Part shown: in pieces, positions 3,532 through 20,557 of the stretch
Layout: every line of letters begins with the position of its first letter
Position numbering within the stretch: position 1 is the stretch's first letter
Virus record (IMG/VR): IMGVR_UViG_2671181040_000013
Origin: a virus
Taxonomy: Duplodnaviria; Heunggongvirae; Uroviricota; Caudoviricetes
Length of the DNA: 41,035 bases
Reading direction: 5' to 3' (one strand)
Notes under the pieces: generated by a model
The model's database searches: none
Told to the model about the DNA's origin: nothing
The model's input: only the letters and a program-made list of their open reading frames with translations
Translations under genes and position numbers: made by a program

Positions 3532-4410
3532 ATGACCTCAGCTTATACAGATGTCCAGCAAGAAGAAAATATTACTGATAAATTAGTTGTTAAATATGAT
3601 GGTCCCGCACTAGCAGATCATAAAATAGATTTGGATGTTTTAACTGAGTCATTGAATGGACTAAACAACTTGCTTAAAGAAGTTAATTTGGTTGTCAATG
3701 GCACTAGTGAGTGTATTAATGTTGAGGTTGAGCCTTTTAAGGAAGGCTCATTTGAGTATTTGATTGATGTTATTCAAAATCCACTTGACCATTTGAATAT
3801 ATTAAGCATTATTGGGCTTGGAGGTACAACTGCACTCGCAGCAGGAAATACTCTCATTGACTTAATTCGTCAGATCAATGGTAGGCAAATAAAACGGTTG
3901 ACTTTAACAGCGGAAGGAGACTGTAAAATAGTTATGGATGATGGTGAGGAAATTATAGCCCCGTCATATTTCCGGCCTTTACTTGCCTCACCAAGCATAC
4001 GCAAATCCTTATCGAAGTTAATTCATAATCCTTTGCAAAAGGAAGGATACGAATCGCTTAAAATTTCAACTCAACAGGGGGTTGAGCTGATTAAGGTGCA
4101 CGAAGATAATATTGAACCGTTCAGATATAGGCGCGTTCCTGTAGTGCAGTCCTTGTCTGAAAGGGTGATTGAAGAGGCTCTAATCACATTTTTGACTATT
4201 CATAAGGATAAAAACACAGGCTGGCGAGTCAACTATGGCGATGACACAATCAGCGTGTCTATAGAAGATACTGAGTTCTTACAACGTGTTAGTACGGGAA
4301 GAGAACCTGGTGTTTTTAGTGATGCTTACTGCGTTGATTTGCTCGTCCGTGAGAACTTGAATTCGCTGGACAAAACGTACATAGTTGTTAAAGTACACGG
4401 CATCTTATAG
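3532..4410 (+). CDS. Hypothetical 292-aa soluble protein, first gene of accessory cassette
   Basis: ATG preceded by AAAGGAA; AT-rich by eye; opposite strand to flanking replication genes; no recognisable motif. Confidence 0.7.
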   Translation: MTSAYTDVQQEENITDKLVVKYDGPALADHKIDLDVLTESLNGLNNLLKEVNLVVNGTSECINVEVEPFKEGSFEYLIDVIQNPLDHLNILSIIGLGGTTALAAGNTLIDLIRQINGRQIKRLTLTAEGDCKIVMDDGEEIIAPSYFRPLLASPSIRKSLSKLIHNPLQKEGYESLKISTQQGVELIKVHEDNIEPFRYRRVPVVQSLSERVIEEALITFLTIHKDKNTGWRVNYGDDTISVSIEDTEFLQRVSTGREPGVFSDAYCVDLLVRENLNSLDKTYIVVKVHGIL

Positions 4411-4433
4411 TAGATTCACATGGGGAGGGGGCT

Positions 4434-4682
4434 ATGATTGCTTTTGCTTTTTGGCTGGCTTTTTTTAGCCTGCTTCCCGTACTATATTGGGTTCTTAAGA
4501 TGGGGTTTGACCGGTTACGCTTTGCGCTTATGCCTAAACATCATCTTGTTCTTGAATGTGTTGACTCAGAAGGAGTTGTCCGTCGCGATGTCGTTGATGT
4601 CTCTTCTGATGATGAATTTTACAAAATTGCAATGAATGCCATTCGTGCTGGAAGATCAGTCAAAGGAGGGACGTTTGAGTAG
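4434..4682 (+). CDS. Hypothetical 82-aa protein with one N-terminal transmembrane helix, second gene of cassette
   Basis: GGAGG 6 nt upstream of ATG 4434; hydrophobic N-terminus (IAFAFWLAFFSLLPVLYWVL) then charged soluble tail. Confidence 0.55.
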   Translation: MIAFAFWLAFFSLLPVLYWVLKMGFDRLRFALMPKHHLVLECVDSEGVVRRDVVDVSSDDEFYKIAMNAIRAGRSVKGGTFE

Positions 4683-5205
4683 CGCTTCTAAACCTGATAG
4701 CTACGAAAAAGTCCCTCTGATTTCTAATGTTGCTGCTGGTGGCATCACTGGTTTTTTAACATTACTGGTGTCCTCGTGGGACGGTCGTTTTCCGTATATT
4801 GGTTCTGATTTAAATACAATAAAGCCATTTCTTTTATTAATGCTTCCCAGTTGCGCTATGTTTCTGGCGCATTGGATAAAGTCGATTGGGTTTAAATGGT
4901 CCTTAGGTAGCGTTAATCGACAGTTATTAAGCATTAATAAGAAGAAAGAAAAAGAACTTCGCCGTGATATTGAAAAGTACAAAAATGTTATTTCTAATGA
5001 AAAGATAGAGGACTTTAAAAGTCAACTTGAACAAGTATTACAAGATCGTCATGATATTATTTCTAATAATTACGCACAGAAACTAAGAGAAAGAAATTAT
5101 ACGCAAGAAAAATATCATGAGCATAAACAAACCGCTGCAAATGATAATATTGAGCTGCAAAGCATACTGGAGAATCAGAAGTTCAATCAAAAAGGCATTG
5201 ACTAA
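4636..5205 (+). CDS. Hypothetical membrane protein (two predicted TM helices plus charged coiled-coil C-terminus), third gene of cassette
   Basis: ORF frame open from ATG 4636; more likely start is TTG 4675 preceded by AGGAGG (4664-4669), overlapping the stop of the previous gene; TM segments VAAGGITGFLTLLVSSW and FLLLMLPSCAMFLAHWI. Confidence 0.6.
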   Translation: MPFVLEDQSKEGRLSSASKPDSYEKVPLISNVAAGGITGFLTLLVSSWDGRFPYIGSDLNTIKPFLLLMLPSCAMFLAHWIKSIGFKWSLGSVNRQLLSINKKKEKELRRDIEKYKNVISNEKIEDFKSQLEQVLQDRHDIISNNYAQKLRERNYTQEKYHEHKQTAANDNIELQSILENQKFNQKGID

Positions 5206-5985: not shown

Positions 5986-8049
5986 TTAATCCTTACGGTA
6001 GTGGTACGCCTCAAAACCGCCAGCGTTCAGTGGGATATCGGGCGCCCATTCGGGGTCAGTGGAGAGAAGCGCGGAAAGCGCTTTATCGTTGAAATCTTCT
6101 GTGTCAGGTGCTTCGGTGATCACCTCGTCGTGTACCGTCAGCACAATGCTGTAACCGGCATCTTCGATAAGCGGCATGTTTCCGGCCAGAATGTCGCGGG
6201 CGGCCGCCTGGGTGATGTTCTCCACCAGCTTTCCGCCGTAGGTTTTGAGTCGTTGCCATTTACGCGAATAAGAGTTAACCCCCATGTAGGTGATATTCCC
6301 TTTTTCGATAACCGGAGACGGGTAGCATACAGCGCGTCCGGATGGTAGCTGTATGCGCAGCCACGCGCCATCGCGGCGGATTTTAAGATAACCGCAATAC
6401 AATGTTTTTTGCGGTGTGGCGATTGCAGTGCGGACGGTGCGCTCCAGTTCGTACCAGAAATCACAGGTCGCGGGATGCGCCCGGCGCCAGAGACGTTTAA
6501 GTGAGTCGCAGGCGATAAATACCCGTTCAGAAAGCCCGTAGGTTGACTTGCGTTTAACCGATTCGTCGTACCAGCTTTTTGCCTCGCGGATAACATCGCG
6601 GGGAATGTTTGGTAGTGCGGCGTTCGCCAGCTCGTCGAGATCGAGACCGTAAACCAGTGCAAAAGTGATGAAGGCCGACACACCACCACCATAACCCAGA
6701 CCGAGTTCCATGACTTTACCGATCTGACGCATGTGTTTATCAACATCATCTGGTGCAATATCGAAAGCTTTTGCATACGCCAGTTTATATAAGTCCGGAC
6801 CCGTTCCGGCGTCGTACTCTCTGAATGCATTCAGTTTCCATTCTTCTCCCGCCAGCCATGCCAGCATACGGCCTTCAATGTTCGACAAGTCACTTACCAC
6901 CAGCTTTTTGCCTGTTGGCGCGATAATGCAGCCACGTAACGCTGAACTGGTTAGTTCCATGATATTGTCAAACAGCAGGTCTGCACATCCGGCTTTCAGT
7001 GCTTCGATGCCTTCGTCTATTTGTTCCTGTTTTAGTGAAGGGCGGGGAAGGTTCTGGGGCTGGAATAGCCGTCCGGCCCAACGACCGGTACGTGACGCCC
7101 CGCAGAACTGTAGCGTACCGCGTAAGCGCCCGTCGTGGCTTACGCCTTTCATCAGTGCCTTGTATTTACTGGTGCTGGTAGTACTGGCCTGCAGGCGGAT
7201 AGCCAGCAGTTCTTTCACGGCAGATGGTAAATCGGGGTCGGCAATACGACGTTCCAGAGTACTGCGTTGCATGTCCGGTAGCTCCACACCGTAGGATTCA
7301 ACAATGTGCTTAATCAACGCGTCCCGTTGTGTGGCTGCCTGCACTTCGCCATCAGTCATTTCCTGTGTACGCTTTGCCAGGCGCTTTTGCTCCTGGTCTA
7401 CCGCTTCGATCGCAGCGCGCGCGAGTTGCATGTCCATGCAGACGCCCCGGTCGTTGATCTGCTGATCACGATGCCAGAGCGCCAGCTCTGTCCCCTGATA
7501 ATTCCACTTCGGCAGACGTTTATAGACTTCGCGCATTGCCTCGATATCCAGTCCGGCGTAAGCAACAAAGCGCCGCCATTCTTCCGGGTGGGTTTTACTG
7601 GTGGCCCGACGCAGTTTGCTGTTTTTTGGGCGTGGCTTACAGAACAGCTGGATCAGCGCTTTACCTTCTTTGTCCTTCGCTTTGTCTTGCGGGACGCCTA
7701 GTACTTCGCAGAGTTCCCCCAGAGACCCCGGGAGACCGTGCGCCAGCGCCTGCACCATCGTGTCGCGCCAACGTTCGACTGGCGGTGCCAGTCGCGGCAT
7801 TGCATAACGCAGGACGGTGCGGTCGAAGTGAGAGTTATGAAAATAAAGCAGGGTTTCAGGGGCTGCGATTGCTTCGTATAAGCCGTGTGGAATACCACTA
7901 CCGGCAGTGATATCCCACACGTTTACGGGCCCGTCGTTGATAGCCCATGCGAACAGCATCACTTCAACGCCTTCGGCATACGCATGGGTACCGTTCGTAA
8001 TAGGGATTTCGCAATAGGTTTCTAGGTCACCCCATAGTATATTGGACAT
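5986..8049 (-). CDS. Family A DNA polymerase with 3'-5' exonuclease domain
   Basis: Exo motif DLETY near N-terminus; polymerase motifs ([25 protein letters not shown]) in the 687-aa translation. Confidence 0.9.
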
Positions 8050-8105
8050 AAAATAACCTTGTGTGATATATGGTTATGTAGGTGTAAATAAACAAGGAGA
8101 CGGCG

Positions 8106-8375
8106 GTGTTTAGCTTTGGTATCGGAATACTTTCATTGATAGGTATTATTGCTTTCCCCATTCTTTATATTTTAGGGAGAATAGTTCGGGCTGGTGGCGC
8201 ATGGCTCGAACGTGAAGAAGGTCCTAAGGATCGTGTTCTTCCCAAAATTATAATTTTTGCGCTTATTGGGTTCTTTCTTGGGTGTTTGGCTCAGCCTGTA
8301 TGGGACAGCATTTCGGCATGTAGAGACTATGGCAATCCAATAGGGAAATGTCTTTTTAAATTCAATGAATTTTAA
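8106..8375 (+). CDS. Small (89 aa) two-TM membrane protein, accessory gene
   Basis: GTG start with AAGGAGA RBS; two hydrophobic helices; AT-rich; opposite orientation to flanking early genes; hairpin 8392-8427 downstream. Confidence 0.55.
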   Translation: MFSFGIGILSLIGIIAFPILYILGRIVRAGGAWLEREEGPKDRVLPKIIIFALIGFFLGCLAQPVWDSISACRDYGNPIGKCLFKFNEF

Positions 8376-8442
8376 TTTTTAGTATTGCGGTAGGCTGGTT
8401 TGGATAACTATTTTCTTAAGCCAGCCTTTGTTATAAGAAATA

Positions 8443-9081
8443 TTAAGCATCTACCCCTTCGTCAGAAGGGAGGCCGATCATTTCGTTGAGAGTTTCGCGT
8501 CGTATAGCTGGCGGAAGCGGAGCAGATGGTGCATCGGCTGGCAGAAGTTCTTTAGCTTCAGGCCACTCTTCCAGCAGGCGCTTAACTGTGCGCACTTTAC
8601 TGAGTGCAGCGCTGACATTCTGTCGAATGTCTGACTCATCGCTCTGTATCTGCTCATAAAGTGCATCAAACCCGTAAAACTCTGTAACTAGAGGGTCATT
8701 TGCCAGAAGGGTAAATTCCCCCGGCGCGATTTTGTGAATATGGTCTGGTGACCCTGATTCATATCCTCGATAGTTACCGTTGAAATAGACGGTAACCCGA
8801 GAACCTGCCAGATTCAGACACATGTAACACTCTTTCCTGATAATATTATTGGCGGTTTTTAATGCTTCGGGGACTTTTGATACCAGTATTTCTATTTTTT
8901 TTATAATTTTTAATATTTCAGCTTCTTTCTCTACGCCCCCGATAGCTGCAAGCCGAACACGTTCGGCCCATTCAACACGAGCAGCTCGTAGTGCTGATTT
9001 ACGTTTGGGGATACCCGCTTTCTCAAGTGCGTTATTGATGATTTGAGTTTTAAGGTGATTAGTTAATACGGGCTGTGACAT
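8443..9081 (-). CDS. Hypothetical phage protein (about 212 aa)
   Basis: Long ORF in early operon; start chosen at MSQPVLT with GAGGG RBS. Confidence 0.6.
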   Translation of the reverse strand: MSQPVLTNHLKTQIINNALEKAGIPKRKSALRAARVEWAERVRLAAIGGVEKEAEILKIIKKIEILVSKVPEALKTANNIIRKECYMCLNLAGSRVTVYFNGNYRGYESGSPDHIHKIAPGEFTLLANDPLVTEFYGFDALYEQIQSDESDIRQNVSAALSKVRTVKRLLEEWPEAKELLPADAPSAPLPPAIRRETLNEMIGLPSDEGVDA

Positions 9082-9132
9082 TATTCTTTCCCTCATGAGA
9101 TCCCCCAGCATGTAGCTGGGGGATGAATATTT

Positions 9133-9681
9133 TTAAATTAGTGCTTCAGCATCAGCACCTTCGCTGATATCGTCGAAATCGTCAGCGCTTGCCACTCCGC
9201 CGCCAGCGAATGCATCGCCGTCTCGCAGGAACTGGACTCCGCCGAGTGAGGCATTAATGCGTTTACCGAAATTATTGTCCTGTGCCCAGATATCGATAAC
9301 GGCGTTTACATAGCACCCTGCATAGGGACGTCCGTCAGCCTGAATAAGTGGCGAACGATCGCGATCAAGAACAGCTGGGCGCGCTTTGTTAGCAGCATTC
9401 AGGAAGAAATTACCGGGGAAGCCTTCATACTCTGCTTTTTCATCACCATCATGCAGGCACAGATTGAGTTTTTTCTCCAGCTGGTTATAAATGGGCTCCC
9501 ACTTCTCTCCCCATTTTTCCTTCGCTACCTGCTTCATAGCTTTACGGATTTCTTCCAGTTGTGGGTGTTTGGGAGACATTAAAAATACTGCGGAGAAACG
9601 CGGATCGCCTTCGCCGTTTACAGTTTTAGCTTCAAACAGAGACGGGAAGGCCAGACGAACATTGTTCAGCTTCAGTTTCAT
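9133..9681 (-). CDS. Phage ssDNA-binding-like protein (DUF2815-like)
   Basis: N-terminus MKLKLNNVRLAFPSLFE and acidic C-terminal tail DDFDDISEGADAEALI. Confidence 0.7.
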   Translation of the reverse strand: MKLKLNNVRLAFPSLFEAKTVNGEGDPRFSAVFLMSPKHPQLEEIRKAMKQVAKEKWGEKWEPIYNQLEKKLNLCLHDGDEKAEYEGFPGNFFLNAANKARPAVLDRDRSPLIQADGRPYAGCYVNAVIDIWAQDNNFGKRINASLGGVQFLRDGDAFAGGGVASADDFDDISEGADAEALI

Positions 9682-9696
9682 GGGGATTTCCTTAAA

Positions 9697-10998
9697 TCAG
9701 ATGAGGTCTGCGGTTAGCGTATCGTCGGATACGTCGTCGAAATCATTTACAGGGTTGATATTGAGTGCGGGGCGTGGGTCTGACTCGGGAACGACGGTGG
9801 GTTTACCATCAGCTCGTGTTATCAGTGCCTCGACTTTTGACCAACGGCGCGGACTGGCCTTTTTGATAAGTTTTTCGGCTTTTGTGGGACTAATAAGTTT
9901 AAAGTCGAATACTTCTTCAGTTTTGTACCTGAACTGGTCCTTCAGAAGTGCGCGAGCTGCCACTTCGTCACTCCAGGCCCGGTTACCTTGTTTTCCTGTT
10001 ACCAGTTTAAACCCCGGTACCGGATGTCCGGCATTGAGTTCATTGTGAACCCGGTCCCGTACTGCCTTTAGCCAGGATTCAATAAAGTCGGCCTGGCTAT
10101 AGATCTCTGCAAGCTGCTCAATGGTTAACAGAGGTACACGTGCGCTGGCATTGGTGATTATTTCGCTGACAGGCTTTGTCAGATCTTCAAAATCGCTGGC
10201 CGCTGTTTGTAAATGCTGCATTTTCTGGGCAGTGCAAATAGCTTTTGCTTTACAGAAGCGGCACTGTTTTTCTCCAGGTATGAAGTTTTCCAGCGGTAGT
10301 GTCTCAATGCCTTCGCATTCAGCAATATTGAGAACAAGGATCGCACTGGTTGCGGCCTCCAGTGCCCGTTCTCCGAAAGACTGAAGTTCCTGTACGGTTA
10401 ACGACCATTCTGAAACGTGGTTGAGCCTTGGTTGGTGAATAAATAATCTTACAGTTTCAAAGTCATACAGCATGCTGAATTGTTCAAGCGCACCCAGAGC
10501 ATACAGTTGTAGTTGCTCATTTTGTTCTGCATCAATGCGGACGCCTTTGCCATATTTCAGGTCGTGGATTTGTAATTCGTTACCAGCGATGATTATGCCG
10601 TCGGCAGTTCCGAAAGATTCTTCCACACCCGTTATATGTGAGAAATCAACACGTTGTTCAACCAATAGTTCATTATTCTTTGCAAGAGTCCAGACCGTAT
10701 CAACATACCGGCCGACGGCTTCGACCATTTCATCATCCACCTGTGGGCCAGATTTATCATCAGGATTTTCGCGAAGGGGGTATGAGCCGAGAAACATAGA
10801 AACATTGCATCCGGCGTAGTGTTCCGGGTGGCTTTGCCTGTTTCGTAGAACTTTTTCAGCAAGCGCGTGCGCTGCAGTGCCCTCGATTGCAAAAGTTGTT
10901 TCTTTATCCGGTTGTGTGGCCTCCAGCGCCAGACTTCCTGGGCAGCGCATCCATCGATGCGCTGATGATGGAGAAAGTTGTGCGTGAACGTCTGGCAT
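9697..10998 (-). CDS. PD-(D/E)XK / Cas4-like nuclease (DUF2800-like) with C-terminal Cys cluster
   Basis: [14 protein letters not shown] motif near N-terminus, [10 protein letters not shown] cluster, acidic C-terminal tail. Confidence 0.75.
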
Positions 10999-12134: not shown

Positions 12135-12165
12135 AAAGACTACACACAGCAATTACATGGATGAT

Positions 12166-12360
12166 TCAGTTGGTATTGTGCGTACGTGGTACCACAAGGT
12201 TGAAGCGGACACGCCAGTGCGTTGCAATGGTATGCAGGAAAGCACCACATCCAGGGCAGTGCTCATAACATTCGTTGATTTGGTATTGTTTTGGCTTTGG
12301 TGTCTGAAGCTGTGTTTGGCAAGCAAGGCATTCACCTTTGAGCGGTTTATACGTTTTCAC
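12166..12360 (-). CDS. Small Cys-rich zinc-ribbon-like protein (64 aa), first gene of leftward operon
   Basis: GTG start with GAGGAA RBS; CxxC ... CxxxCxxC spacing; basic. Confidence 0.5.
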   Translation of the reverse strand: MKTYKPLKGECLACQTQLQTPKPKQYQINECYEHCPGCGAFLHTIATHWRVRFNLVVPRTHNTN

Positions 12361-12667
12361 GCCGTTTCCTCATTCAGTTCACTTTGGTGGTTCGGCGGCT
12401 TCGACTTGTATCAGTAGACAGTGCTTCGCCAGTGGATTAGTAAAAGGCCAGAAGCCTTTGATTAATTCACTGCTCGCCCCATCGTCGGGGCGTTTCAATT
12501 TGCGTGACTTATCAGCTCGTCGCGGTGTTGTCCTCTACGCTTACCGTACGCATACGGACTCGGCGCTTACCTCGATCCCATCGGGTGCCATTTCATTTTG
12601 CCAGGAGTACTGCGGCTTACCTGTCACGCGGTTCAGTTTGTTAAAGAGCGATTACTTATTGCGATTA

Positions 12668-17990: not shown

Positions 17991-18467
17991 ATGCAGGCAC
18001 TAAATTCACAGCGTAAAGCTTTCCTGGATATGGTGGCATGGTCAGAAGGAACGGATAACGGGCGACAACCGACACGTAACCACGGTTATGATGTTATTGT
18101 TGGTGGCGAACTGTTCACTGATTACTCCGATCACCCCCGCAAACTTGTCACGCTAAACCCCAAACTCAAATCAACAGCCGCCGGACGTTACCAGCTTCTT
18201 TCACGCTGGTGGGATGCTTACCGTAAACAGCTTGGCCTGAAAGATTTTTCGCCAGAAAGTCAGGACGCTGTGGCGCTGCAGCAGATTAAAGAGCGTGGCG
18301 CTTTACCGATGATTGACCGTGGCGATATTCGTCAGGCAATCGACCGTTGCAGCAATATCTGGGCGTCGTTACCTGGTGCAGGTTACGGTCAGTATGAACA
18401 TAAAATCGGTGACCTGATTGCCCGATTTAAAAAAGCTGGCGGAACGGTCAGAGAGATTGAGGTATGA
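17991..18467 (+). CDS. R: Endolysin, lambda R-type lytic transglycosylase
   Basis: Translation ([46 protein letters not shown]...) nearly matches lambda R as I recall it. Confidence 0.9.
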
Positions 18468-18925
18468 GCAGAGTCACCGCGATTATCTCCGCTTTGGTTA
18501 TCTGCATCATCGTCTGCCTGTCATGGGCTGTTAATCATTACCGTGATAACGCCATTACCTACAAAGCCCAGCGCGACAAAAATGCCAGAGAACTGAAGCT
18601 GGCGAACGCGGCAATTACTGACATGCAGCAGCGCCAGCGTGATGCTGATGCACTCGATGCTAAATACACCGGAGAACTAGCTGATGCGAAAAAGCAGCTT
18701 GATGATCTGCAGCGTTGTGTTCGCACTGGCAAGTGTGGGCTGCACTTCAATGCCCGATGTCCAGCGAGCGGAAAGACCGGCACCGGCAGCTTGGGCGATG
18801 CTTCCAGCCCCGGACTTACTGACTCCGCTGAACGGGATTATTTCACCCTCAGAGAGCGAATCGTCACAGTGACGAAGCAGGTCGGCTACTTGCAGGACTA
18901 CATCAAAGAGCAGTGTTCAAATTAG
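18464..18925 (+). CDS. Rz: i-spanin Rz
   Basis: N-terminus [55 protein letters not shown] matches lambda Rz from memory. Confidence 0.9.
18684..18872 (+). CDS. Rz1: o-spanin Rz1 lipoprotein, embedded in +1 frame within Rz
   Basis: 62-aa ORF fully inside Rz; lipobox-like SVGC; proline-rich; C-terminal [11 protein letters not shown] as in lambda Rz1. Confidence 0.8.
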
Positions 18926-18983
18926 TGTTAATGAAGAATTTTAAGGGTAATATTATCTCTATTTCTCAGGATGGAGGTAATTT

Positions 18984-19391
18984 ATGCAGACCGATCTGGA
19001 ATACTTGAAGGGAATGTTAGGGGTCTTTATTAAGGCTGGCGGACCATTGATATCAGCTAATGACCTTAAAAAAGCTGGATACGAAATAAGCAGCGATAAA
19101 GGACTCTTTCATTACTACCAATTGATTGAGAGAGGTTATATCAGTAACCATTTTCTAGAAATAGGCGATCCTAAGAAATTAGGACTTACTATTGGGCTTA
19201 ATGAAATCCGTGAATGGCCAGCCAATGTAAGACTCACGTCATCAGGCCAAGAGTTTGCAGAAACCCTTCAACAAAAGGATGTTTTTGAGAAGCTAAAAAC
19301 AATTAGCGATCAACCATTATCGGTATTGAAAGATGTTGGTGTAGAGCTTCTAAAATCCTACGCAAAAAAGAAATTTGGTCTTTCAGATTAA
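18984..19391 (+). CDS. Hypothetical 135-aa protein, accessory gene after lysis cassette
   Basis: Strong GGAGG RBS; AT-rich; occupies the lysis-terminase position where lambda carries bor. Confidence 0.65.
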   Translation: MQTDLEYLKGMLGVFIKAGGPLISANDLKKAGYEISSDKGLFHYYQLIERGYISNHFLEIGDPKKLGLTIGLNEIREWPANVRLTSSGQEFAETLQQKDVFEKLKTISDQPLSVLKDVGVELLKSYAKKKFGLSD

Positions 19392-19771
19392 CTGCCTATG
19401 GGCGGTTTTTATTGCCATTACGATGATTCTCCCCATTGTGATGGCAGTATCCCCTACAGAGGATAATTAACCATATATCCCCACAAGCAGATAAAGAGGC
19501 TCTCAATGTCCGACATCTACCAAACCCAAACAGGCGAAACCTTTACGGGCAAGACGTCACGACGTCAGCCTGAGCTGGTTAATGGCTTTATGCAGCTGGC
19601 TACCGAGACGGGCGAGTAAATAACTCCATTAGGAGAATGTGGAACCATTACACTTTGAGCCGTTAACTGATATTGATAAAGGTAAATAATATCCTGGTTA
19701 AGGTTTTCTAATAGCCAGCCATTTGCAAAATCACAGTTACAGCAGCAGCGAAAGCTGCATATGAGTTATAT

Positions 19772-19981
19772 TTAGACTGTAACCGCGCAGTTAAGAAAAA
19801 TTCGTGAAGATCTACATTTTTTTTTGGGATCATCAAATGTAATTGCTACAACGGTGCTTCTACCTGTTTTGACTTTGGCTGTTGCTGATTTGATCCATAA
19901 CCCAGCCGATAAAAACCCAAAGAAAATCGATAGTGCATGATGGTCAATTAACCAGTTTTTAATTAGTAATAAATCACTCAT
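19772..19981 (-). CDS. Small (about 69 aa) single-TM membrane protein, accessory gene
   Basis: Minus-strand ORF in AT-rich DNA just upstream of terS; hydrophobic helix ALSIFFGFLSAGLWI; start chosen at MSDLLL, weak RBS. Confidence 0.45.
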   Translation of the reverse strand: MSDLLLIKNWLIDHHALSIFFGFLSAGLWIKSATAKVKTGRSTVVAITFDDPKKKCRSSRIFLNCAVTV

Positions 19982-20005
19982 TTTCAATCCAATTGAGACT
20001 TTGTC

Positions 20006-20557
20006 ATGGCACTCACCGACAAACAAGAGATGTTCTGTCGCGAGTACCTCATCGATTTAAACGCCACGCAAGCGGCTATTCGGGCGGGGTACAGCGCAAA
20101 GACAGCTAACCGTACCGCATCCGAAAACCTGTCAAAACCTGACATCAAGTTAAGAATCGCCGAACTGAAAGCGCAACGCAATGATCTTGTTGGTATTAAT
20201 GCAGAATATGTACTTAATCGCCTTATTGAAATCGACCAGATGGATGTGCTTGACATTCTCCTGCAAAACGGTGAGCTAAAACCCATTAAAGACTGGCCTA
20301 AGGTATGGCGCACAACGTTATCAGGAATGGATGTCGTGGAGATGGCATCCGCAGATAGCGCCGCACTTCTGAAGAAAATCAAATGGCCTGATAAGGTTAA
20401 AAACCTTGAGTTGCTCGGGCGTCATGTTTCTGTTCAGGCGTTTAAAGACAATGTCAAAAATGAAGTGACTGGTGCTGACGGAGGACCAGTCAGAACAGAA
20501 ATTACCAACTTAACGCCGGAGCAGGTTACAGAAGCGTATAAAAAAATGATGGGCTAA
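20006..20557 (+). CDS. terS: Terminase small subunit
   Basis: N-terminus [30 protein letters not shown] typical of small terminase; immediately upstream of large terminase. Confidence 0.8.

Follow-up and report, generated by a model that had tools for sequence, protein, structure and literature searches.

We examined positions 8050-8442 of a 41,035-nucleotide stretch of viral DNA (Caudoviricetes; IMG/VR record IMGVR_UViG_2671181040_000013; hereafter the window), which lie in a temperate, myovirus-type Escherichia coli prophage integrated beside yfhL. This segment carries an open reading frame (ORF) for an 89-aa protein with two predicted transmembrane (TM) helices, and we propose that it is a moron, that is, an autonomous and horizontally exchangeable transcription unit, placed antisense within the replication operon. 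The small gene would be transcribed from the repressed prophage, and its product, lodged in the inner membrane, would shield the envelope on its own by blocking entry of the genomes of superinfecting phages. We give this reading, that of a lysogeny-expressed moron whose inner-membrane product excludes superinfecting phages, a probability of about 0.4. The block could be exerted by binding the incoming tail/tape-measure channel, or by masking an inner-membrane factor that the phage uses. A disulfide between C72 and C82 probably fastens a short periplasmic helix at the C-terminus to the end of the second TM helix, and specificity would reside in the variable stretch that these cysteines enclose.

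We favour exclusion because of the diversity of cargos at the site where the gene resides, the co-location of a SIR2 defence candidate with a member of its family, the opposite-strand placement of family members in several phages and the variability of the segment between the cysteines.

The small gene and its protein family

A sequence-only reading of this DNA had already picked out an 89-aa ORF with a GTG start and an AAGGAGA ribosome-binding site, and all of these are present. The coding sequence runs on the + strand from the GTG at 8106 to a TAA stop ending at 8375 (RefSeq WP_000490740.1); an in-frame stop lies 5' of the start at 8085. Read from the sequence, a Shine-Dalgarno (SD) motif, AAGGAG, is found at 8094-8099 (AAGGAGA at 8094-8100), 6 nt before the GTG. 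Among 5426 complete E. coli genomes, 32 contain the 8050-8442 block, in single copy and at least 99.2% identical, and RefSeq annotates the ORF in 31 of these. The E. coli copies differ at only 3 sites in 393 bp, as against 0.041 per site in the neighbouring polymerase gene (pol), and within the 270-bp gene itself we found one substitution (A71V) and one probable assembly indel.

The ORF could have arisen by chance in AT-rich spacer DNA, and some observations would fit this explanation: in length alone it is only modestly out of the ordinary (after dinucleotide shuffling of 8050-8442, 66 of 5000 sequences held an ORF of 89 codons or more), the promoter scan returned no consensus site, and the polymorphism among E. 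coli copies is too low to compare nonsynonymous with synonymous substitution rates (dN/dS). Against it stand the relatives of the protein. An exhaustive HMMER scan of 1.84 billion protein representatives returned 121 family representatives at E <= 1e-3, 37 of them at E <= 1e-10. These align with the 89-aa protein from end to end, at identities down to about 30%, their N-termini coincide with the GTG at 8106, and Gly and Cys positions are invariant or nearly so. In addition, AlphaFold2 produced a confident model, and a strong SD motif together with a terminator-like hairpin is an architecture kept across three genera. We therefore regard a chance ORF as extremely improbable. Family conservation effectively refutes it on sequence grounds, and is the decisive evidence that the small ORF is a genuine gene.

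Most members of the family are of similar size (98 of the 122 aligned sequences have 80-100 aa), a length of about 85-95 aa being characteristic. Longer members were considered as potentially informative fusions and rejected, their extensions being devoid of Pfam domains and resembling mis-called starts. The conserved columns are F4, G7, Y21, R28, A32-W33, P40-[KR]-[DE]-R43-V44, G55 and G59 (120/122), Q63, C72, G76 and C82, all of which the 89-aa protein carries; they include a loop motif, AW..R...PK[DE]RV, and a C72-x9-C82 pair, with both cysteines present in 113 of the 122 sequences.

The two hydrophobic segments announced by the sequence-only reading are clearly apparent, with Kyte-Doolittle 19-mer maxima of 2.44 and 2.40 at residues about 3-24 and 46-65. 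Across the family, the median number of lysines and arginines is 5 in the inter-helix loop and 2 in the C-terminal tail. Following the positive-inside rule, this excess would place the loop in the cytoplasm and both termini in the periplasm. The predicted topology is thus N-out/C-out, with a cytoplasmic loop formed by residues 25-47 and a periplasmic C-terminal tail, which places the C-x9-C pair where disulfides form. With the family alignment, AlphaFold2 modelled a helical hairpin (pLDDT 87.8; helices 8-34, 44-74 and 79-86). The hydrophobic helices, the charge bias and this hairpin all together predict an inner-membrane location. The segment between the cysteines is variable, with an entropy of 2.92 bits versus 2.2-2.4 in the helices and the loop.

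The family was revealed only by the exhaustive scan. A word-indexed protein search retrieved only near-identical E. coli copies and, with a profile, 8 proteins; a single-protein scan of a one-genome-per-species collection found no relatives. When the 89-aa protein was compared with plasmids by tblastn, one match was obtained, in Sulfuricurvum, and divergent family members used as queries matched one Pseudomonas phage. Scans of Pfam, NCBIfam, PHROGs and PADLOC with the 89-aa protein gave no family, only noise-level TM matches, and the same libraries scanned with 60 relatives gave none either, save phrog_8574, of unknown function, for 2 of the 60. In PADLOC-DB v2, the 89-aa protein had no match and one of the 60 relatives a marginal one (0.0034). 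At the level of structure, Foldseek found nothing at E <= 0.001 in BFVD and PDB (best match, E = 1.3), and a sequence-profile search of the PDB returned only spurious matches to transporter TM segments, at E about 0.07. Where source names could be retrieved, members are called "hypothetical protein" or bear an evidently spurious automatic label. By sequence, the 89-aa protein belongs to a conserved family that no searched database names; its named hosts are E. coli, Serratia, Pantoea, Providencia, Proteus, Polaromonas, Roseateles, Sulfuricurvum and a Pseudomonas phage.

The junction between the polymerase and SSB genes

The small gene occupies a variable junction (8050-9132) that extends from the start codon of pol, which encodes a family A DNA polymerase (5986-8049, - strand), to the stop codon of the gene for a DUF2815/Enc34-type single-stranded DNA-binding protein (SSB; 9133-9681, - strand; Pfam PF10991, 7.6e-44). 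These two genes are the conserved left and right flanks, the pol start codon being the cargo boundary. In the window, the junction contains the small gene and a second cargo gene of the Nmad5 family (8443-9111, - strand; Pfam PF18757, 2.6e-56; RefSeq start 9081), so that the small gene diverges from pol (head-to-head) and converges on Nmad5 (tail-to-tail).

To delineate the junction we used a 1.6-kb query spanning it, which matched 158 of the 5426 complete E. coli genomes; the cassette is present in 32 of these, and the other 126 are without the small gene. In BLAST comparisons with six junction variants, homology breaks exactly at the ATG of pol (8049) and at the DUF2815 stop codon (9132/9133). 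One Nmad5-containing variant differs only in 8077-8466, the segment that holds the SD, the ORF and the hairpin; this unit thus exchanges on its own. The ribosome-binding site of pol (CCTT at 8057-8060, AAGG on the - strand) lies inside the edge of the cassette, and each junction cassette supplies one. No transposon-like or att-like repeats were found flanking the cassette.

What replaces the small gene in other E. coli prophages is diverse. In several variants the cargo is an AT-rich gene (GC 0.28-0.32), oriented like the small gene, whose unrelated product has 178-209 aa and 3-4 TM segments, one type matching phrog_10579 and another distinct from it (L002, 4497-5126; L004, 977-1576; L006, 1008-1637; L007, 997-1533). 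Others hold a 229-aa soluble protein together with Nmad5, or a BRO-N gene on the - strand. With few exceptions, the alternative cargos in E. coli lie on the + strand, and the majority encode membrane proteins. We also considered that these cargos share ancestry with the 89-aa protein, and rejected it (hhalign probability 0.14%); the AT-rich multi-TM cargos may nevertheless be its functional analogues. A PADLOC scan of the E. coli junction cargos gave no match. Judged from these sequence comparisons, the pol/SSB junction is a sharp-edged hotspot with mutually exclusive cargos.

The same site is used in other genera. In Serratia nevei prophage remnants, whose pol is 73% identical, family members 46-49% identical to the 89-aa protein are found at the same junction, and in Providencia/Proteus prophages (pol 75% identical) a member 35% identical is found there. 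The Serratia and Providencia genes are likewise divergent from pol and AT-rich relative to their flanks (GC 0.43 vs 0.545 in Serratia, where the pol gene is at 0.62; 0.34 vs 0.40 in Providencia, where it is at 0.46), each with its own SD (TAGGAG and TAAGGAG, respectively) and terminator-like hairpin. In Providencia stuartii, the member lies beside a gene for a 500-aa SIR2 protein (L025, 7293-8795) that matches the PADLOC defence candidate PDC-S25 (2.8e-158); this prophage also encodes a RelA/SpoT-domain protein (L025, 10958-12016; PDC-S33, 1.6e-89). The sequence-only reading had stated that it would fail if the ORF were not conserved as coding in related prophages, and had called for comparative genomics of the junction. 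The Serratia and Providencia/Proteus homologues, equivalent in position and orientation, answer the first point in favour of a gene, and the comparison of junctions shows extra DNA with sharp breakpoints. The insertion that it described between pol and "downstream early genes" is supported; its wording needs one correction, as in the direction of the - strand operon pol is downstream of the small gene's neighbours.

The recurrence of the position beside the pol start codon in Escherichia, Serratia and Providencia/Proteus prophages, and the fact that nearly all alternative E. coli cargos share the + strand and mostly encode membrane proteins, could suggest a role intrinsic to phage replication: either a membrane anchor for the replisome, as phi29 p16.7, or a transcriptional roadblock, in which a divergent promoter at the pol start and convergent transcription would keep pol silent in lysogeny. 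We find such a role very doubtful. The gene is dispensable and replaceable, as the 126 E. coli genomes with the region and without the gene indicate, and some variants have a non-membrane protein or the - strand BRO-N instead. Moreover, phages also carry family members near lysis, terminase or portal genes, away from any polymerase, and homologues from the pol junction resemble each other no more than they resemble members located elsewhere. This pattern would fit fast divergence after vertical descent as well as repeated capture.

Morons in the sense of Hendrix and Juhala are recognised by criteria summarised in PMC3594210: extra DNA, deviant GC, an own promoter and terminator, and expression from the repressed prophage. 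By sequence, extra DNA, deviant GC and a predicted terminator are found for the small gene. Its GC content is 0.396, versus 0.497 in the 3 kb on either side; over 8000-8499, GC is 0.385-0.43 versus 0.52-0.615 in the pol gene. The surrounding replication/recombination operon is on the - strand, and the small gene is antisense to it. AT-rich DNA on the strand opposite to the replication operon, as given in the sequence-only reading, is thus borne out.

The long hairpin that this reading had placed after the ORF, at 8392-8427, was also recovered. An inverted repeat scan and folding delimit a terminator-like stem-loop on the + strand at 8387-8434, with core arms at 8392-8401 and 8418-8427 and the U-rich TTGTTAT as its tail (8428-8434). 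Folding of the + strand RNA gives -20.3 kcal/mol (z = -3.0), a value that 0 of 200 shuffles equalled, and UUUGUUAU comes after the fold; the - strand RNA reaches only -10.6 kcal/mol (z = -1.7), without a U tract. Because the fold and the U tract are specific to the + strand, the hairpin could stop the small-gene transcript and let the - strand operon read through to pol. A terminator scan, with a stated loop limit of 3-8 nt, did not report the 8387-8434 hairpin; the own terminator of the small gene is a prediction made by folding.

A candidate promoter for the small gene, a near-miss to the consensus, was identified by eye on the + strand at 8043-8072: a -35-like TGGACA (8043-8048), which overlaps the pol start codon, an 18-nt spacer with a TG at 8064-8065, and a -10-like TATATG (8067-8072). 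The stretch TGnTATATGGTTA in this region is common to the L003 junction variant. A sigma-70 consensus scan did not recover this candidate. An Rfam scan of 7800-8700 at E <= 1 found no RNA family, antitoxin small RNAs included.

Proposed superinfection exclusion and the alternatives

Small inner-membrane moron products have precedents as proteins that exclude superinfecting phages at the step of DNA entry. HK97 gp15 is expressed from the prophage and is described as preventing genome entry while leaving the outer-membrane receptor untouched (PMC3594210). T4 Imm and P22 SieA are likewise membrane proteins that block DNA entry of superinfecting phages (PMC11436027; PMC10883804). The 89-aa protein resembles gp15 in being a single small inner-membrane protein, encoded by a compositionally deviant insertion in a phage operon that is absent from close relatives, and the mode of action of gp15 is by analogy the one that we propose. 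The differences are also clear: gp15 has no Pfam/PHROG link and no tblastn relation to the 89-aa protein, its gene is in the tail operon rather than on the opposite strand of a replication operon, and the 89-aa protein has two TM helices, with a Cys pair conserved on the periplasmic side. T4 Imm is close to the 89-aa protein in its small size. T4 Imm and P22 SieA have no Pfam or Foldseek match to the 89-aa protein, and T4 is lytic, whereas the small gene is prophage cargo. In action, the 89-aa protein may thus be most like HK97 gp15 or T4 Imm; it is a member of no named family, and homology to the known exclusion families (T4 Imm/PF14373, P22 SieA, HK97 gp15, Cor, Llp) was found neither by sequence nor by fold.

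Several observations weigh against exclusion. Searches with the libraries, tblastn and Foldseek revealed no characterised exclusion protein that resembles the 89-aa protein in sequence or fold; in particular, T4 Imm (PF14373) and the other exclusion families of Pfam matched neither the 89-aa protein nor the 60 relatives, and in 50,697 phage genomes tblastn with the 89-aa protein as query located no homologue. A sigma-70 consensus scan of both strands of 7800-8700 found no promoter-like site, and dN/dS is uninformative because the E. coli copies are near-identical. The cytoplasmic loop is more conserved than the periplasmic tail, which would be unexpected for a blocker that faces the periplasm only. 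Finally, some members lie outside obvious phages: two are directly 3' of ABC transporter/membrane fusion protein (ABC/MFP) exporters of the type I secretion system (T1SS) type, and one is carried by a Sulfuricurvum plasmid that is non-mobilizable and has no genes of phage type around the member. These exporter and plasmid contexts fit other envelope-protection roles equally well.

The last observations raise the possibility of a protein that protects the envelope from something other than phages or modulates the host, such as an orphan bacteriocin/microcin immunity protein, or a regulator acting on an inner-membrane transporter or sensor through its disulfide-bonded tail, much as MgrB acts on PhoQ. 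Bacteriocin immunity genes are usually located beside export genes, and 2 of the about 13 contexts examined show such an arrangement; the plasmid-borne member also favours a role of this kind. The conserved periplasmic Cys pair and cytoplasmic loop suggest a conserved host partner. The likeness to MgrB, a chromosomal PhoPQ feedback regulator with one TM helix and a periplasmic tail with two cysteines, is a functional analogy: both proteins have a short periplasmic tail with two conserved cysteines about ten residues apart, but there is no homology, and the 89-aa protein differs in its second TM helix, its conserved cytoplasmic loop and its carriage by mobile elements. We nevertheless consider a non-phage role unlikely. 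In most contexts, which are phages, prophages or integrase islands, neither a toxin nor an exporter gene lies close by; no member was found next to a bacteriocin gene, and the scans showed no similarity to the immunity families of Pfam/NCBIfam.

These contexts are varied, and several are classical positions of morons or resemble defence islands, which speaks for the proposed exclusion. In a Pantoea lambdoid prophage the member is flanked by lysis genes and terminase genes and lies on the strand opposite to them, and in Pseudomonas phage Pacha_bin_1 the member, also on the opposite strand, adjoins the endolysin gene. A lambda-like phage carries one between the terminase and portal genes; another member adjoins an integrase and AbiTii, and yet another lies in an integrase/primase island. 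None of the neighbours recurs in every context, and this points to a function exerted by one gene. Shortly 3' of the family member, and convergent with it, a YciI-family gene is present both in a Serratia host flank (L016, 9541-9837) and on the Sulfuricurvum plasmid (L022, 6375-6662); this adjacency in two unrelated contexts is probably a coincidence.

The sequence-only reading had offered superinfection exclusion or a toxin-like activity as functions, and we consider the second to be the weaker half of that proposal. The protein would then be a membrane-damaging effector, a toxin- or holin-like depolariser serving abortive infection, addiction or lysis timing, and held in check by antisense transcription of the operon. 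Its small size and two TM segments would suit such a role; a read-through transcript of the operon would be fully complementary to the small-gene mRNA, the hairpin being weak on the - strand; and the Pantoea and Pacha_bin_1 members adjoin lysis cassettes. Type I toxins (Hok, Ldr, TisB, ShoB, Ibs) are mostly under about 60 aa, with a single TM segment and a dedicated antisense antitoxin RNA. The 89-aa protein differs from this class by its greater length and two TM helices; neither an antitoxin RNA nor any other Rfam family was found in 7800-8700, and no toxin family of Pfam/NCBIfam matched the protein. Class II holins have an N-in/C-in topology, opposite to the N-out/C-out predicted here. The location in the replication operon on the opposite strand does not fit this class either, and no holin family of Pfam or PHROG matched the protein or the 60 relatives. 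Moreover, the annotation of the prophage beside yfhL in E. coli CREC-544, to which the first 12 kb of the window are 99.4% identical, includes a lambda-family holin along with a GH24 lysozyme and LysC. The small gene does not belong to a lysis cassette, the members that adjoin one lie on the opposite strand, and no sensor partner is conserved beside the gene. Conserved motifs on both sides of the membrane, the Cys pair included, point to specific interactions and not to generic membrane damage. Taken together, an effector of this kind seems to us quite improbable.

Exclusion by a prophage moron also agrees with the character of the junction. P2/P4-type elements are known for the defence and accessory hotspots of temperate phages and satellites. 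The pol/SSB junction shares with them a fixed core-gene junction, sharp breakpoints and mutually exclusive AT-rich cargo, with SIR2/PDC-S25 in the Providencia relative; it differs in backbone and junction, and its cargos are mostly small or medium membrane proteins of unknown function, no E. coli cargo matching PADLOC.

A wider and more speculative proposal, which we consider rather unlikely as a whole, is that the 89-aa protein founds an unrecognised and scattered family of single-gene inner-membrane superinfection-exclusion (or, more widely, envelope-immunity) proteins of Proteobacterial phages, plasmids and islands. In such a family, the disulfide-stapled periplasmic tail would give specificity and the conserved PK[DE]RV loop would be needed. 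The pol/SSB junction would be a dedicated slot that swaps membrane shields and defence genes (SIR2/PDC-S25) under diversifying selection, and the antisense cargo could double as a brake on pol in lysogeny.

The surrounding prophage and the significance of the gene

Further genes of the same - strand operon are a DUF2800 gene (9697-10998) and ANR, DUF4406 and VRR-NUC genes. Nmad5 is itself cargo, confined to the two junction variants with 72-100% coverage of the query and missing from most others; in some strains (UPEC 26-1, A34; UPEC, uropathogenic E. coli) it is frameshifted or split. Strains with the small-gene cassette include UPEC F11, NCTC9022 and CREC-544. In Dhillonvirus, a single nmad5 mutation stops the Tmn defence system from sensing infection (PMC11846954). 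The Nmad5 neighbour led us to consider a link between the small gene and the anti-Tmn gene, which we rejected: the latter encodes a soluble alpha/beta protein found almost only in Dhillonvirus, with one occurrence in Skarprettervirus. A perfect 10-bp inverted repeat (ATCCCCCAGC / GCTGGGGGAT, 5-nt loop) at 9100-9124 lies in the short gap that separates the Nmad5 start from the DUF2815 stop, close to the right cargo boundary and inside it; it may be an attenuator or a recombination landmark.

The window corresponds to IMG/VR contig UViG_2695420539_000015. At its start (1-261), the E. coli prophage abuts yfhL, which encodes a 4Fe-4S ferredoxin, near acpS and pdxJ. The Providencia relative adjoins the same Fer4/acpS/pdxJ neighbourhood (L025, 3055-3852), which suggests that the integration site is conserved across Enterobacterales genera. 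A second AT-rich island on the opposite strand (3532-5205, + strand; GC down to 0.31) holds three genes between those for VRR-NUC and a DEAD-box helicase. The product of the first, of 292 aa, matches the PADLOC candidate defence system PDC-S42 (6e-40), and the other two have no family. Compared with the CREC-544 prophage the window is mosaic: about 12162-12475, near the immunity region, and 18442-20006 have no match there. The latter segment lies between the lysis genes and the small terminase gene, a classical moron site, where the CREC-544 counterpart holds a 151-aa opposite-strand gene absent from the window.

Prophage morons encoding small membrane proteins are a recognised source of phage resistance, yet a thinly characterised one, with only a handful studied. 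The kind of gene described here is thus already known; what is new is an undescribed family and a newly delineated cargo slot. The small gene is tractable, as a single 270-bp gene with C72/C82 and the PKDRV loop as mutational targets, and the hotspot offers natural allelic replacements that can be compared against one another. Should the gene be without effect on phages, it would be an ordinary hypothetical moron. If exclusion is true, the gene would bring a new family to the catalogues of defence systems, and the pol/SSB junction of a common Enterobacterales prophage lineage would be a place to mine for further systems. It would then also bear on the host range of therapeutic phages in the E. 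coli lineages that carry the gene, UPEC included.

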